In this document: positions 15,486 through 23,053 of the stretch, piece by piece
Numbering within the stretch: the stretch's first letter is position 1
Layout: every line of letters starts with the position of its first letter
From: a virus
Lineage: Duplodnaviria > Caudoviricetes
DNA length: 26,962 nt
Reading direction: 5' to 3' (one strand)
IMG/VR virus record: IMGVR_UViG_3300025018_000474
Span: 1-26,962 of that record
Notes under the pieces: model-generated
What the model saw: only the letters and a program-made list of their open reading frames with translations
What the model was told of the DNA's origin: nothing
Database searches by the model: none
Position numbers and translations under genes: made by a program

Positions 15486-15661
15486 GGACTAAGAGTTAGA
15501 TAGGGATTTAGCTCTGGTTTTGTGTAATAGTTCTTATAATAGAGAGTTGTCAGATTATCTGTTTTCATAGCTTATAATTAGTTTAGTTTAGATTGATATA
15601 TACTAATCAGATAACTCTCTATTTATATAGTTAAATATTAATAAAAATAATACTTAATAAT

Positions 15662-16323: not shown

Positions 16324-16593
16324 ATGGTAGAAGAATGGGCAGAAATAGAAGAATCTACTGGTTATAGTATAAGTAATAAAGGTAGGGTAAAGAAAGGAAA
16401 TATTATTTACCCTACCTATACCCTTACCAAGAATGGTATAGCCATTTATCTATCTATAGATAGTAAGGCTGTCTTATATTTAGTTGATGATTTAGTTGAA
16501 AAGTATTTTGGTGAAATAAATACTATAATACTTAAACCCTCATCAATTATAAGAAATCGTAAACCTAAAAAATGTTGTGGTAACAACAAATAA
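16324..16593 (+). CDS. NUMOD4-like protein without a recognisable HNH active site
   Basis: EEWAEIEESTGYSISNKGRVK matches the NUMOD4 pattern; YLVDDLVEKYF parallels VHRLVAxAF. Confidence 0.65.
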   Translation: MVEEWAEIEESTGYSISNKGRVKKGNIIYPTYTLTKNGIAIYLSIDSKAVLYLVDDLVEKYFGEINTIILKPSSIIRNRKPKKCCGNNK

Positions 16594-16606
16594 TAATAAT
16601 ATAGAT

Positions 16607-17191
16607 ATGATAACGAAACATCTCTTAGGTACTAAACTTAAAGTACAAGAAGATGGTAAAATATTTAGTAATGGTAAAGAATTAGCAATAAATACTACTG
16701 GTACTTATGATATGGTTAAAATATCTATCAAAGGTAGGTACAGAAATTTTAGAGTAGATTATGTAGTTGCTAATTCTTTTTTCCCTTTATTAGATGAAGA
16801 TGGGGAAGTAATACATCTTGATTATGATTTACATAATCATAGCTATACTAACTTACAATGGATTAGTTTTGAATCTGATATTGCAATAGATGCCTTAACT
16901 AATGATTGTTTAATATTATGTATAGATGTTTTTACATCTAACCTTATCTCTTTCTACAGGGGGGAACGTCATGTATGTATTAAAAATAATACAACATTAG
17001 AAGAGCTTACACCCCATCTAATACAACCTATAATACCTATTAATAATAAATTATTCTTTAGATTAATAGATATTAATGTAATAGATATAAATACAGCTTA
17101 TATGATATTTGAAGTATCAGATAAAATGTATGTAATACGTTATAATCAGGATATGATGTACAAATTAGTTAAATTACTCAAAAATGAATGA
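16607..17191 (+). CDS. Divergent HNH endonuclease-family protein
   Basis: VDYVVANSFFP...VIHLDYDLHNHSYTNLQW follows the phage HNH pattern; ATG at 16607 preferred to GTG at 16577. Confidence 0.7.
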   Translation: MITKHLLGTKLKVQEDGKIFSNGKELAINTTGTYDMVKISIKGRYRNFRVDYVVANSFFPLLDEDGEVIHLDYDLHNHSYTNLQWISFESDIAIDALTNDCLILCIDVFTSNLISFYRGERHVCIKNNTTLEELTPHLIQPIIPINNKLFFRLIDINVIDINTAYMIFEVSDKMYVIRYNQDMMYKLVKLLKNE

Positions 17192-17504
17192 AACTATATT
17201 TGATATAAAAGAAAAACTTCCTATCAATATAGTTATTATACCTTTTGACCATAATATAGAAAGGTTAACAGGTTATATTGATATAATAATTTCTGATACT
17301 AAATTATATCTTACCAATAATACAAATTTTACTATTAATGATATAGTTGATATACCTATTAATGTAAAAAGTATATCTGTAAAATCTGAAGATAGTCATT
17401 TTTTACTTAATAATTTTATGAATACAATAATATTTACAACTAGTAGTTATTTTATTACTACTTATATAAATGGGTTTAAGGTCAAAAGGCAATCCAATAA
17501 TTAA
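17184..17504 (+). CDS. Hypothetical protein
   Basis: 106-aa ORF overlapping the upstream gene end. Confidence 0.7.
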   Translation: MNETIFDIKEKLPINIVIIPFDHNIERLTGYIDIIISDTKLYLTNNTNFTINDIVDIPINVKSISVKSEDSHFLLNNFMNTIIFTTSSYFITTYINGFKVKRQSNN

Positions 17505-17524
17505 AACTAAATACAAAATGCTAA

Positions 17525-17788
17525 ATGAATAACGCAAAAAACTCCCAATTAACTATAATACGTGTTATACGCATACCCATTTTATCCTATTATGGTGGTG
17601 GTTATCGTTTAGAATACGACGGTAAATACATAACGCTTATCGGAAAAGATAAAAACTACAAGTGTATGTTTGGTGAGGATTATGAAGAAATGGTCTTGAT
17701 TCCAGTTGTGGAAGAAATTAGAAATGCTGAACCTGAAATTATAGAAACGACAAATAAGGAGATTGTGGTTTCTTTAGGTTATGCATAA
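17525..17788 (+). CDS. Hypothetical protein (cassette-like gene)
   Basis: 87-aa ORF; stop codon lies in GCATAAC. Confidence 0.75.
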   Translation: MNNAKNSQLTIIRVIRIPILSYYGGGYRLEYDGKYITLIGKDKNYKCMFGEDYEEMVLIPVVEEIRNAEPEIIETTNKEIVVSLGYA

Positions 17789-17908
17789 CGTTGGTGGTAT
17801 GGTTAGTTGGGGATTGTGAGGTACTGATATATCAAATTACAAAGGATTACAAGCAGAATAAACGGATTGTCTTTATAATTGGCACTAATGGTTCGTATAT
17901 AAGTAGTT

Positions 17909-17993
17909 GGGGAGATAGTAATAATGGTAAAACATAATACAAGTCTTTGGAGAAAACGGTATTAAGATTTGAGTTCGGTCCTCAATCTCTCCA
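17909..17993 (+). tRNA. Degenerate tRNA-like element with expanded anticodon loop (possible pseudo-tRNA-Gln UUG)
   Basis: Acceptor GGGGAGA/TCTCTCC+A, D-loop TAATGGTA, stem TAATAC/GTATTA around an 18-nt loop containing CTTTGGA, T-arm TTGAG-TTCGGTC-CTCAA. Confidence 0.55.
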
Positions 17994-18039
17994 CAATTAT
18001 TTATATACAGTTGGGATATAATTTTTTAAATTAAAATAT

Positions 18040-18213
18040 ATGGAAGATTTACTAAGAGAAGTATTTAAACTTGGGCAACAATGGGTTCAAGATATGAACA
18101 ATGGCAAAGAGTCAATAAACTTTAATACATGGTACAGTTCTGATGAAACGTAGGAGCATCTTGAATTATTGGAAAAGGTCTTTAAAAACCACTTCCAGAA
18201 AAACAAAGATTAA
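18040..18213 (+). pseudogene. Small ORF interrupted by an in-frame TAG
   Basis: MEDLLREVFKLGQQWVQDMNNGKESINFNTWYSSDET*(18151-18153)EHLELLEKVFKNHFQKNKD*; good A-rich start context. Confidence 0.5.
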
Positions 18214-18235
18214 AATAAATACAAAACTTAAATAT

Positions 18236-18520
18236 ATGAAGGATAATAATTTAGAAAATGAAAGTAAGCAATTAGGTACATACCATGTTACCCGAAATAA
18301 TTTATATAAAGGTATGCGTGTGCAAGATAGTGAAGGTAAAAAAGGTGTTGTTAGGAATTGTGAAGATTTGCATAATGTTCATATAACATTTGAAGGCAAA
18401 GGAATTGAGATAGATTGGTATGAAACACTTTTTGAGTGTGGGGATAGTGGGTTGTATTGCTTCATTGAAAATTGTGAAGATAATTGTGAGGATGAATACC
18501 CATTGTATTATTGCATATAA
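18236..18520 (+). CDS. Hypothetical protein (cassette-like gene, Cys/acidic C-terminus)
   Basis: ATG at 18236 in typical A-rich context, preferred to 18143; leader MKDNNLENESKQLGTYHV. Confidence 0.75.
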   Translation: MKDNNLENESKQLGTYHVTRNNLYKGMRVQDSEGKKGVVRNCEDLHNVHITFEGKGIEIDWYETLFECGDSGLYCFIENCEDNCEDEYPLYYCI

Positions 18521-18578
18521 TGGTTACGTATATGACCCGTTTGAGATAAATAGTACAAACTTTCAAAACAATATATAG

Positions 18579-18848
18579 ATGAGAAAAGAAATAAAACAAC
18601 AAAACAGCATCGACACCCAAATGGGTTATGATATAGTATCACTTGCTGTTTTTCCTTGCAAAAAGATAAAGGCAGGTAAATATAAATATCGTGGTTGGAT
18701 TATTTCGTGTGTTGGCTATTATGAGCCTGAACGAAGAGTATGCTGGGAAGGATATGACCCTGAAACTGGCTGTGGGGATTTTCATGGGTTTTCAAAGCGA
18801 GAAATAAAATGGTTAATAGACGAAAGCCTGTTTAAAAATAGCAGGTAA
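18579..18848 (+). CDS. Hypothetical protein (cassette-like gene)
   Basis: 89-aa ORF; stop in GCAGGTAAC; body bounded by a 16-bp imperfect inverted repeat. Confidence 0.8.
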   Translation: MRKEIKQQNSIDTQMGYDIVSLAVFPCKKIKAGKYKYRGWIISCVGYYEPERRVCWEGYDPETGCGDFHGFSKREIKWLIDESLFKNSR

Positions 18849-18902
18849 CGGTCATAAATATATCTAGTTTAGGATAAATAGTATAAACTTTAAACAAATA
18901 AA

Positions 18903-19148
18903 ATGAGTAAAAAAGAAACTTTAAATGAAACACGGAAACCCAAATTGCGCCTAACTGGTATTAGGCATAGTCTTTCTAACTATGCTATTTTTGAAATACA
19001 AGACAAAGGCATAATTAGAATGGCACTTACAGGGGATAAAGATAAAGAACATTCCTTTTTAATGCGAGATGAAGCGATTGAATGGCTTGTTAATTATGCC
19101 GATGATTTTAAGCGGTATTTTATAGTAGAACAAATAATAGTCTATTAA
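18903..19148 (+). CDS. Hypothetical protein (cassette-like gene)
   Basis: 81-aa ORF with leader MSKKETLNETRKPKLRLTGIRHS. Confidence 0.75.
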   Translation: MSKKETLNETRKPKLRLTGIRHSLSNYAIFEIQDKGIIRMALTGDKDKEHSFLMRDEAIEWLVNYADDFKRYFIVEQIIVY

Positions 19149-19209
19149 ATTACGCTTAACGTGGGTTATGTAGTTGGGTTTTATTTATCAATTTAAAACA
19201 AAAGTAGAT

Positions 19210-19440
19210 ATGAAACATAAATTTTCAATAACCGACAAATTAAGGCATTTTTTATATTGCTTATTATGTTGTGTTAAATTTATAGTAGGATGGATAATGT
19301 GGATAATAATATTTCTGTTATCATTAATATTTTCATTGTTAACGTGGAATTTTAAAGAAACATCTACTATAAATATGAAAGTTGTAATGATAGAAATATG
19401 TGGAAAATCAACATGGAAATGTATGGGACTTGGTGATTAA
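19210..19440 (+). CDS. Small membrane protein (cassette-like gene)
   Basis: ATG at 19210; long hydrophobic segment FIVGWIMWIIIFLLSLIFSLLTW. Confidence 0.7.
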   Translation: MKHKFSITDKLRHFLYCLLCCVKFIVGWIMWIIIFLLSLIFSLLTWNFKETSTINMKVVMIEICGKSTWKCMGLGD

Positions 19441-19495
19441 TACCCTTATAACGGATGAATATATATTTCGGTTATGATTTACAAAGAACTAGTAA

Positions 19496-20008
19496 ATGAA
19501 ACCAATAAAAAACAGAAGGCAGATATTAAAACAATATCCTATTGATATTAGTCCATTTGCCTCTCGGACTAAGATAAAAGCTAAATTTAATCTTCAAGAG
19601 ATACAAAATAGTGATTCAGATGTGGTATTAGCTAGAAAAAGAGCTTTTCAATCAGATGAATACATTAAATACATTTTATCTCCTGAAATGAATTTAGCTG
19701 CTTATTATAGATTATCTAATTTAGCTAAGACTATGTTACAATATATAGTTCATAATTGTTTAGAATATAATACACCTATTTTTAGATTAGATATTAATGA
19801 TTTTATGATACTCATTAAGTTTAAGACTAAGAATAAAGTGTATGATTGTGTAAATGAACTTATAACTACAGATTATATAGCTAGGACTACTACCAAAGAA
19901 ATATATTGGATAAACCACAATATATTTTATAAAGGTAATTATTTAATTACTAAAGAATTAAAAATACGCAAGACTGAAGAATATTTAAAAAAATTAGGAA
20001 TAAAATAA
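19496..20008 (+). CDS. RepL-like winged-helix replication initiator / DNA-binding protein
   Basis: LSNLAKTMLQYI...VYDCVNELITTDYIART...YWINHNIFYKGN resembles the RepL family C-terminal YxINPxxFxxG motif; RepL-like genes are known in crAss-like phages. Confidence 0.7.
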   Translation: MKPIKNRRQILKQYPIDISPFASRTKIKAKFNLQEIQNSDSDVVLARKRAFQSDEYIKYILSPEMNLAAYYRLSNLAKTMLQYIVHNCLEYNTPIFRLDINDFMILIKFKTKNKVYDCVNELITTDYIARTTTKEIYWINHNIFYKGNYLITKELKIRKTEEYLKKLGIK

Positions 20009-20293: not shown

Positions 20294-20651
20294 GACATTT
20301 AATAAAAAGATATTTAAAGAAAAAATAGAATCTATTGGTACTAATAAAGTTAAAGAATTTAAGACTAAAATAAAGAGTGTAGAACAACATATACCTTTAG
20401 AGTTTTTTAAGTCTAATGGTTCTTTATCTATTGAGAATACTTTAAATATATTACCTACGCCTATAAAGAATATACTAGAGAATGGTAATAATCCAATTTC
20501 TATCAAATCCAACAGTTCTATTATTGAGATTAAAACTGATACTGGATTATCTATTACAGTAAAAACTAGTAGCATAGATGATAAAGTACCACAAGTTAAA
20601 ATCTTTGATAAAGACTCAAAGACTGAACTACTTAATACATACAAAAGATGA
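20283..20651 (+). CDS. Hypothetical protein
   Basis: 122-aa ORF, ATGA-coupled to the helicase gene. Confidence 0.7.
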   Translation: MKIKTFNKKIFKEKIESIGTNKVKEFKTKIKSVEQHIPLEFFKSNGSLSIENTLNILPTPIKNILENGNNPISIKSNSSIIEIKTDTGLSITVKTSSIDDKVPQVKIFDKDSKTELLNTYKR

Positions 20652-21889
20652 ATGAACTTAATGTAAATTTAACTGTTGACCAGAAAGATGCTTTAAATCA
20701 TATGGTTGATTGGGCTAAACAACCTAATAAAACTAATGATGATTTATTCTATGTTTTAACTGGGTTTGCTGGAACTGGTAAAACTTTTTTATTAAAATAC
20801 TTTGTACAAGTAAGTGGAATTAATAACTTAGTTGTTACTGCACCTACTCATAAAGCTAAGAAAGTTATATCTAATAATACTGATTTACCTGCTAAAACTA
20901 TACAATCTTTATTAGGTTTAAGACCTGATGTTAATATGGAATTCTTTGATATTAACAAACCTGTATTTAATCCACTTGCAGAAGAAACTATTAAAGATTA
21001 TAGATATGTAGTTATTGATGAAAGTAGTATGCTTAATAAAGATTCTTTTGAATTAATAACTAAGAGAGCTATATACTTTAAAATAAATATAATATTTTTA
21101 GGGGATAGTTATCAATTACCACCAATAGGTGAGCCTATTAGTAGAGTATTTATAGATATTAAAAACAAATCTGAACTTACTACTATTGTTAGGCAAGAAG
21201 AAACTAATCCTAATATTAATTTACTTAATCTGATTAGAAATGATATTAGATTTAATAAAACTACTGCTTTAGCTTATATATATAAGAATCCTAGTAATAT
21301 TAATAAAATAGGAGAAGGATATTTAGCTTTAACATCTAAGGATTTTGTTCAAGCATTAATATCTCAATTTTGTAAAACAGAATCTATGTATAGTTCTGAC
21401 TATATTAAATATATAGCATATACTAATAAATCTGTAGCTACCGCTTGTAAAGGTATCAGAAATAAAAGGATTGGCAAAGAATCTTCTGAATTAATTGTTA
21501 AAGCTGATTTTTTAATAGGATATAATACTATATTAAAAGATGCTAAAGATGGTTTATATACTGTTATAGAGAATAGTGAAGATTATACTATAGATAGTAT
21601 TGAAGATTGTGTTAGTGATTTTAATATTAAGTGTTATGGTGTTAAATTATCAGATTCAAATAATTCTTCATCTTTTATATATATAGTTAAGAAAGAATCT
21701 TACGAAGATTTCTTAGATATATTTAGAAGTAAGTTATTAGTAGCTAAAGAGAAAAGAGGTAGATATTGGGAATATTATTATAAGTTTAAAAACGAACATT
21801 TACTCATGGAAGATTTCTATTTTTCTAGTGGTAAATTGGAAGTAAAGAAAGACTTATACTATGGTTATGGTTTAACGATACATAAGAGT
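20648..21889 (+). CDS. dda: Dda/RecD-like SF1B DNA helicase, exon 1
   Basis: Walker A GFAGTGKT, APTHKA, TIQSLL, Walker B IDESSM, GDSYQLPPI, IVRQ; ends in motif V (GLTIHKS). Confidence 0.9.
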
Positions 21890-22921
21890 TAACAAAAACC
21901 TATGGCTCTTATAAAACCTATTTAATTGCTGGAACTTCCTAAAGATGTTAATACTACAACATAACTAGAAATAGTAAGTGTGAATGTTTAAGAAATTAAC
22001 ATATATTACAATGGATAATCAGCAGCGAAGCCTTTAAGTAGAAATATAAAAGGAACGTTCAGAGACTATCGAAAACACGTGCAAACGGAAGTGAGTAGAG
22101 TACATTTATGTATAAAAACATATCTGGAAAAAGTAGGGTATTTCTGTTTACTATTCACAAATTGCTTAAATTCACAGTTCATAAAAAGCAATTTTAGAAT
22201 TTTAAACATTTGAAAATTATGGAAAATAAAGTTAAAAGGGAGTATCTATTGTTTAGTTAATCCTATTACAGAAGAGATTTTTTATGTAGGAGCAACTAAG
22301 ACTGATTTAATGGAAAGACTTAAAAAACATTATTGGGATTTAACTAGTTACCAAAACGGAAAACGTAAGTTTAATAAACGTTTTGAGTATTTAGAAAAGT
22401 TATTACCAAATACTGTTAGTTTAGGTCTTATTGAAGAAGTTAACTTAGAAGAATTAGATGAGAGAGAAAAATATTGGATTAATTATTATAAAAATTTAAA
22501 TCCTAATCTTACAAATACTACAATAGGTGGTAGAGGTGGAGATACATATGGATTACAATCTGATATAAGACAAAAAGAAATTTCTCTTAGAATAAGTAAT
22601 GCAAATAAAGGTAGGTCTAAACCTATAGGATTTGCTGAAAATTTATCTAAAGCCAGAAAAGGTATTAATAATCCTGCTGCTAAAGAAATTAGTATAGGAT
22701 GGATAGTATGTAGTAGAAAATACTTATTTAAATATGGTTTTGAAATTAATTCTTTTATGAAAAATGATTATGCTTTTGGAAACATATATAAGGCTCTTAA
22801 AAAGAATAATAGAGCTATGTGTAATTTTAAAAACTTTGAATTATTTAGTAATTTATCAAAAGAAATACAAGATATAGTCCAACAAGATTATGAAAGTAAT
22901 CAAATGAAAATTTAAGTACAG
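21890..22921 (+). mobile_element. Group I self-splicing intron in the helicase gene
   Basis: Exon end ATAAGAGT pairs with IGS GCTCTTAT (21905-21912, U.G at the splice site); core elements AATTGCTGGAA, AATCAGCAG, GTTCAGAGACTA, AAGATATAGTCC; P9 GATTAT-GAAA-GTAATC; terminal G at 22921; removal restores HKS/QGST. Confidence 0.93.
22219..22915 (+). CDS. Intron-encoded GIY-YIG homing endonuclease (frameshift near the 5' end)
   Basis: GSIYCL...FYVGAT...RLKKH, EREKYWI, NTTIGG and NUMOD3-like repeats; the ATG at 22219 is one base out of frame with the motif-bearing frame. Confidence 0.8.
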
Positions 22922-23053
22922 CAAGGTAGTACTTATAATAATGTTGCTGTTAATGTAAAAGATATACTTAAAGTTAGAAATATAAAAGAAAGAAATAAAC
23001 TTTTATATGTAGCTTTAAGTAGAACTAGTAAATTAAATATTTTAAATATATAA
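22922..23053 (+). CDS. dda: Dda/RecD-like helicase, exon 2
   Basis: QGSTYNNVAV...NKLLYVALSRTSK completes helicase motifs V and VI. Confidence 0.92.
   Translation, partial: QGSTYNNVAVNVKDILKVRNIKERNKLLYVALSRTSKLNILNI

Follow-up and report, generated by a model that had tools for sequence, protein, structure and literature searches.

A likely decayed and immobile block of inverted integron-like cassettes in a crAss-like phage fragment, with hairpins that likely supply gene starts and leaders

The window analysed here, a stretch of 26,962 nucleotides of viral DNA (IMG/VR record IMGVR_UViG_3300025018_000474), contains a likely decayed and no longer mobile block of integron-like cassettes in inverted arrangement: the hairpin lies before the gene, where it likely holds the start codon and an N-terminal leader, and in related phages it is gained and lost together with the gene. 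We would put the chance that this reading is correct at roughly three in four. About 32% complete, this fragment comes from a crAss-like phage: its major capsid protein is 35-38% identical over 96-98% of its length to crAss-like capsids, as is expected of Crassvirales.

The block forms a cassette island of 1.95 kb (17505..19460, no strand assigned), with a GC content of 0.31 against 0.24 and 0.23 in its flanks. It holds five short ORFs, A (17525), C (18236), D (18579), E (18903) and F (19210), and neither PHROG nor Pfam returned an informative family for any of the five proteins. An initial annotation of this DNA had placed a recombination core 13-20 codons inside each ORF, and this is indeed what is found, with the core at 17564 in A (39 nt past the ATG, codon 14), 18287 in C (51 nt, codon 18), 18638 in D (59 nt, codon 20), 18960 in E (57 nt, codon 20) and 19263 in F (53 nt, codon 18). 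All five leaders are as it listed them, and the core is, as it stated, read in frame in three genes, as valine (GTT) in A and C and as isoleucine (ATT) in E; in D and F, the first core base is a third codon position. Contrary to its description of the leaders as polar, that of F is not. An Rfam scan of 17000-20000 matched no model and gave only one chance hit. The search for phage relatives, including any without the island, found none with the helicase and the 19496 gene as queries, which counts against our reading.

Several neighbouring features deserve mention. Two HNH-endonuclease-like ORFs lie directly 5' of the island (16324-17191), and a strong inverted repeat (15522-15636, arm score 40, attC-like offsets) just ahead of the 15662 ORF is possibly a further degenerate site. 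On the other side (20648-23000), a helicase-like ORF ends at 21892 and apparently continues near 22916 around a homing-endonuclease ORF (22310-22915); the break is likely an intron.

The hairpins, cores and ORFs of the island are all on the + strand. Gene A (17525..17788, 87 aa, of which 13 codons are a hairpin-encoded leader) is preceded by the remains of a hairpin (17480..17570) in which a loop remnant, a right arm and the inverse core GTTATAC (17564-17570) align with the complete hairpin of locus L002; the left arm is lost and no left core was found. At its far end, the cassette A 3' core GCATAAC is followed by the orphan left arm of the next hairpin (17783..17815; identical to the L002 left arm at 26 of 30 bases), whose right half appears to have been deleted with most of the cassette belonging to it, an arrangement also present in other contigs of the DNA runs. 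The orphan arm (17790-17815) hardly differs from the left arm found ahead of A in L002; a circular cassette A opened inside its loop would explain this, the alternative being two cassettes with the same hairpin type. Further along, a complete hairpin with a mutated upstream core (TAAT) occupies 17883..18016 (arm score 38, arms related to those of L139 and L141) and has no leader ORF. Its loop (17909-17994) can be folded into a tRNA-like cloverleaf with a 7-bp acceptor-like stem, a 5-bp T-like arm and an enlarged anticodon loop; neither ARAGORN at default settings (no tRNA) nor Rfam called it, and ARAGORN loses specificity under relaxed settings, with 611 calls on 469 control sites. A short ORF with its own ATG lies at 18040..18153; its TAG at 18151 is followed by 20 more open codons (to 18215), a situation identical in L286, and the ORF may be either a pseudogene or subject to TAG read-through.

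Gene C (18236..18520, 94 aa) takes a 17-codon leader from a right half-hairpin whose core, GTTACCC, lies at 18287 and whose left arm is absent. The gene D hairpin (18515..18644) retains an upstream core (TAAT), a left arm, an A-rich loop with the ATG (18579), a right arm and a mutated inverse core (18638). It is 81% and 72% identical to the intact hairpins of L287 and L288, and its identity as a site rests on this homology, because hits with a score of 30 are common in the AT-rich window under relaxed cores. Gene D (18579..18848, 89 aa) has a body predicted to consist of a small beta-sheet and a helix and a leader predicted to be disordered (residues 2-21, pLDDT<50); a fold search gave one match, an uncharacterised phage protein. 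The D 3' core AGGTAAC opens the gene E hairpin (18843..18966), with a decayed right arm and the inverse core ATTAGGC at 18960; by eye this site had looked like a hybrid, an idea that was dropped since the leaders of homologs suggest a decayed right arm instead. Gene E (18903..19148, 81 aa) has a 19-codon leader and also occurs on a 43-kb contig. Its 3' core, GCTTAAC, is followed by the gene F site (19154..19269, inverse core ATTATGT at 19263), which has unpaired arms, is about 14 nt shorter than usual and is likely a deletion hybrid. Gene F (19210..19440) encodes 76 aa with a hydrophobic middle.

No site in the window combines two intact cores with paired arms: the left arm is missing from A and C, both cores of D are mutated, the right arm of E has drifted and the arms of F do not pair. 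Among these, only D has an arm score above the shuffled null (30, for a 99th percentile of 26; E and F score 16). G>A changes are found in three 5' cores and AAC>AAT in two upstream cores, the cassette cores are complementary at only 4-6 of 9 positions, and the arms of four sites fold at -1.8 to -9.2 kcal/mol, compared with -12.9 to -20.1 (10th-90th percentile) for intact sites. Neither joints nor substitutions nor indels were found in the contigs of four DNA runs, one of which may be the source of the record, contigs being a form in which rare variants are dropped. The window copies are probably no longer mobile and, as far as the sequence can tell, the block is likely a fixed relic in which reading frames were kept. 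The window may represent an end stage, where sites decay while leaders stay in frame.

The window sites belong to a family of attC-like hairpins common in Bacteroidota and their phages. A single 23-base right-arm pattern matched 125 stretches of bacterial genome contigs, most of them titled as Bacteroidota, and no fewer than 128 stretches of viral DNA. A hairpin finder run on 1.70 Mb of loci identified 599 distinct sites with an orientation, compared with 0 in 0.34 Mb of shuffled DNA. Core-to-core distances are 110-125 nt in most sites, and in 323 of the 420 units from related loci the body ends are complementary over 8 of 8 bases, in agreement with paired RYYYAAC/GTTRRRY cores. The hairpin is asymmetric, with about five unpaired bases after AAC and one or two before GTT. 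In 212 phage sites, selected for an offset difference of 2-4, pairing follows the register 6-2, 7-3, 8-4, 9-5 rather than the integron spacer of 5-6 nt per arm; this register is constant over the first 18 positions, and there is no fixed bulge or extrahelical base.

When the strand is oriented by this geometry, G:T pairs outnumber A:C pairs about two to one (576 vs 269), the loop is 49% A, and the arms fold better on the strand so defined in 193 of 212 phage sites. This is a one-strand bias of the integron kind: in integrons, the attC bottom strand is recombined, being cut within AAC, and is marked by G:T skew and a purine-rich loop (PMC5027507). Of 203 phage cassettes, 176 have their gene on the folding strand (4 on the other strand, 23 unclear), whereas bacterial isolates show the reverse, 65 of their 83 cassettes having the gene on the other strand (4 on the folding strand, 14 unclear), the isolate set being dominated by one genome, the phage set by one search pattern, and the loci not being independent. 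Host arrays would thus be conventional and phage cassettes inverted; a top-strand gene followed by its own attC is the rule in host isolates and is reversed in phages and in the window. One Flavobacterium chromosome (L012, L016, L017, L058, L085, L086) carries an array of such sites across about 60 kb.

What moves can be read from cultured Flavobacterium phages. Of mumin6-1 and mumin6-4, one genome has a 506-bp segment, precisely bounded by TAAC at either end, that the other does not have; it holds the upstream hairpin, the ATG, a 15-residue leader and the gene, the downstream hairpin remaining in place. Among 18 pairs of homologous bodies, two have identical contexts and 16 are informative: in 12 of these, the preceding hairpin (in folding-strand orientation) is 0.80-1.00 identical and the flanks beyond AAC are at background on both sides; in the other four (hairpin identity 0.53-0.74), a different hairpin is joined at GTT. 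The gene D copies that share a hairpin (L287, L288 and the window) diverge 5' of AAC and again past the terminal AAC. In six phage-type loci (L168, L218, L185, L184, L230, L019), the last element of the array is an AAC core with no hairpin, followed after about 40-60 nt by a tyrosine recombinase in the same orientation, and a wider count of array ends goes modestly in the same direction (hairpin-less 3' ends 40/242 vs hairpin-less 5' starts 19/240). The routine crossover would thus likely take place at the AAC that lies 5' of the hairpin, so that hairpin, ATG, leader and body travel as one cassette. The initial annotation had proposed that insertion creates a translational fusion. These comparisons do not support the proposal: in its behaviour, the GTT within the ORF corresponds to the inverse core (R'') of the cassette to which the ORF belongs, gain and loss concern a unit that begins at the AAC 5' of the hairpin, and routine insertion would therefore bring the leader along and make no new fusion. 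At most, fusion on insertion holds as a minor route.

Two further observations concern the mumin phages. In one inverse core (L313 5424-5350 in mumin6-1, L314 4918-4845 in mumin6-4), the two genomes have four base differences, and complementarity to the core on the far side of the cassette is limited to the mumin6-4 version. In mumin6-1 (L313 2431-6317), DNA methyltransferase genes reside in such cassettes, two of them with hairpin leaders; methyltransferase content was linked to plating efficiency in a study of these phages whose main text uses neither 'integron' nor 'cassette' (PMC7077304).

Comparison of gene copies also indicates that leaders are exchanged exactly at GTT, and that this exchange, while real, is rarer than AAC-bounded movement. 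With junctions assigned by eye, 46 homologs of D fall into an xLP(A/T)V class (19), a VTRR class (8), two atypical cases and 17 without a hairpin-type leader; the hairpin-less copies L303-L306 carry purine-rich Shine-Dalgarno-like motifs. Fifteen DNA copies of D form seven hairpin clusters that share a single joining core, with a junction of 18 nt in the frame-0 cluster and 19 nt in the others, and in the D tree L289 groups with L290/L297 (96/97 support) despite their differing hairpins. Clustering and tree include the window and leave out 13 of 27 loci, which have no anchor motif (L302, L307, L309, L310), are hairpin-less (L303-L306, L308) or are near-duplicates (L285, L286, L291, L299). Gene A behaves similarly, its similarity to L003 breaking sharply at GTT. 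A crossover at the inverse core would be the simplest cause, the alternative being repeated independent capture; for classical attC sites, recombination of the top strand is 1000-10000 times rarer (PMC5027507). The predicted disorder of the D leader would fit a tolerated passenger. The suggestion that homologs share similarity only past the core and carry differing leaders thus holds for A, C and D when these are compared with more distant homologs, and fails for close homologs, which keep the leader with the body: so do three of three homologs of E, two of two of F, eight of 46 of D (those with the window's leader type) and L002 for A. The view of the site as a portable expression signal needs amendment too, portability not being free: the hairpins fall into at least two classes of reading frame, and the D copies that follow one or the other of the two show a one-base difference just past the core.

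The claim that the site encodes the start codon and leader is supported. None of the five ORFs has an ATG near the core, the first ATG, GTG or TTG after it being codon 48 in A, 27 in C, 40 in E and 30 in F, with none in D. In homologs of A, C and D, conservation starts at or just past the core, ahead of the next possible start codons (by 10-34 codons in A and C), so a start 5' of the core is needed. In phages generally, 172 long sites with a gene comprise 121 whose gene is open back to the core and 51 closed off by a stop, with a start of their own; the leader role is therefore not universal. An in-frame hairpin ATG is present in 107 of the 121 core-open genes (permuted mean 55, maximum 72) and, when the gene has no ATG of its own within 60 nt, in 71 of 72 (32.8 expected, maximum 47, 5000 permutations). 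Positions -12 and -13 are important in Bacteroidota initiation. They are A in 87% and 85% of the 71 in-frame loop ATGs and in 55% and 72% of the 29 out-of-frame ones, with A at -3 in 45% and 24%, respectively. Two observations count against our reading: A at -3 is less frequent at loop ATGs (45%; one of five in the window) than at ordinary starts (64-69%), and the third-position excess in the loop part of the leader is weak (25.5% vs 19.5/20.5%, p=0.13, 67 pairs), with an upstream control that is itself uneven. The Bacteroidota -7 promoter motif, TANNTTTG, occurs on the coding strand of 4 of the 212 phage sites and at none of the five window genes, a scarcity for which we claim no promoter in the hairpin. 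Each cassette thus likely carries its own translation start, as judged from these patterns.

The enzymes adjacent to arrays match the integron-integrase model TIGR02249 in two pieces at 133-212 bits, under its cut-off of 265 bits. In a comparison with 2A3V, a stretch of 68 residues in IntI4 corresponds to 25 in the phage enzyme, and host and phage array recombinases alike are without about 40 residues at the position of the IntI insertion. Arrays abut a recombinase in six phage-type and at least five host loci. In hosts, the array follows the 3' end of the enzyme and begins at a hairpin-less core (L067) or at an atypical palindrome (L052, L064, L031); that the recombinase-proximal site is hairpin-less in one case and an atypical palindrome in three is counted against our reading. 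Among viral loci, only 5 of 150 have a recombinase nearby, a scarcity suggesting that a host enzyme may act in trans. Neither mumin6-1 nor P12002L encodes a tyrosine recombinase, and none was found in the window record, which is about 32% complete, so that one could lie elsewhere in the genome. No primary (attI-like) site is present in the window. With several degenerate sites and no recombinase in this partial record, the block may correspond to a CALIN, a set of two or more attC sites with no neighbouring intI.

Other explanations of these data have to be considered. If the hairpin belonged to the upstream cassette and crossover at GTT were the main route, each insertion would fuse a start-less body to the preceding leader. 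The sharp breaks at GTT between copies with different hairpins (A in L003 against the window, the seven D clusters, four of 16 pairs) are what such a route would produce. Yet the mumin indel is bounded by TAAC, the upstream hairpin is kept in 12 of 16 pairs, in phages the array stops next to the recombinase at an AAC without a hairpin, and homologs of E and F retain their leaders; moreover, free shuffling over two or three frame classes predicts many mismatches, whereas 71 of 72 genes match. We regard this route as very improbable. We give similarly little credence to the idea that the leaders are untranslated, the open frame through the arm being fortuitous and the start a non-ATG codon near or behind the core. 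The weak codon-position signal, a stem that could hide the region, and a D leader that is predicted disordered and missing in 17 of 46 homologs would all agree with it, but D has no ATG, GTG or TTG past the core, A and C have conserved residues 10-34 codons before the next start, the frames match in 71 of 72 genes, and a one-base difference tracks the frame class.

It is also unlikely, if somewhat less so, that the hairpins are regulatory or repeat modules, combining RNA structure and an initiation region, which spread by homologous or microhomology recombination and owe nothing to the adjacent recombinase. The half and hybrid hairpins of the window are not expected from site-specific recombination; mumin6-1 and P12002L encode no tyrosine recombinase and few viral loci have one nearby; and P12002L_attC1, the one member of the family that was tried with IntI1, gave no verified junction (PMC9892861). 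Against such modules stand the 8-base complementarity of body ends in 323 of 420 units, the breaks at AAC between unlike hairpins and the recombinases that adjoin arrays in six phage-type and at least five host loci.

We thus propose that the block derives from inverted integron-like cassettes that worked as follows. Comparison of related loci shows a mobile unit bounded by two AAC cores, one ahead of the hairpin and one where the gene ends, and including the loop, the ATG, the right arm and the GTT inverse core. A tyrosine recombinase related to IntI and without its insertion, provided by some phages or by the Bacteroidota host, would recombine the folded coding strand at AAC. The A-rich loop may serve as a Shine-Dalgarno-free Bacteroidota initiation region, which would make each cassette translation-ready wherever it is placed in a phage transcript. 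A rarer crossover at the GTT inverse core, of which we see the pattern, would swap the whole hairpin and hence the leader, its products surviving only where the frame fits or a one-base change has followed. The phage of the window would have acquired the block, let its recombination features drift and kept the reading frames.

It is tempting to speculate further, though we think it rather doubtful, that these elements are an undescribed integron lineage with an IntI-insertion-less recombinase, common to Bacteroidota and their phages and mirror-image in the latter, and that crossover at GTT represents a second and slower activity of this recombinase, through which genes receive new N-termini and ordinary phage genes are drawn into cassettes. 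If true, the GTT activity would be a testable route for cassette birth. Independently of this speculation, a site that doubles as gene start would reverse the textbook cassette, lytic phages would be able to shuffle translation-ready accessory genes (such as the DNA methyltransferases of mumin6-1), and hairpin leaders would explain the recurrent junk-looking N-termini of small phage proteins. Cultured carriers exist, making strand choice, start use and cassette origin testable.

How does this compare with known systems? Phage attC clusters (PMC9892861) and translational help from attI and attC ORFs (PMC8876359) are already known. In the open full-text literature, we found no account of N-termini or starts encoded by attC or of inverted phage cassettes, an account that paywalled papers or preprint supplements may hold. 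Integrons have been described as rare in Bacteroidetes (PMC9024848), which contrasts with the 125 bacterial and at least 128 viral pattern matches reported here. CALINs, attC clusters without an integrase, were described in virulent phages including the Polaribacter phage P12002L (Qi et al. 2023, PMC9892861); P12002L attC1 is a short site of the same geometry and is also called by our hairpin finder. The main text of that paper contains none of the terms start codon, crAss or Bacteroid*, and the parts compared describe neither the inversion nor the leaders.

Recombination sites that supply translation signals have precedents in ORF-11, ORF-17 and ORF-18 of attI1, in short attC ORFs and in fused cassettes such as gcuF1-blaOXA-28, and about 20% of cassettes have no initiation region of their own (PMC8876359). 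Those systems act through coupling, a fixed attI or the loss of attC, whereas the N-terminus of the phage proteins would be encoded in frame by the loop and arm of an intact hairpin that belongs to the cassette itself. The A-rich, G-poor region ahead of the loop ATG resembles the Shine-Dalgarno-free initiation of Bacteroidota (PMC6847099), from which the loop ATGs differ in having A at -3 less often than ordinary starts do.

A further likeness is to integrons themselves (PMC5027507), with which the phage system shares paired RYYYAAC/GTTRRRY cores, a long imperfect hairpin, G:T and purine skew of one strand, a crossover at AAC on that strand (which here we infer from sequence) and an array beside a tyrosine recombinase. 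Unlike integron cassettes, phage cassettes have the gene on the folding strand, behind its own hairpin, and the site encodes the start; the spacer is about 5 nt on one arm and 1-2 nt on the other instead of 5-6 on both, no extrahelical base is fixed in the first 18 positions, and the recombinase is without the IntI insertion. By its features, then, the block appears to work like the integron cassette system in mirror image and, by the tests of insertion and spacer, stands outside the IntI family.
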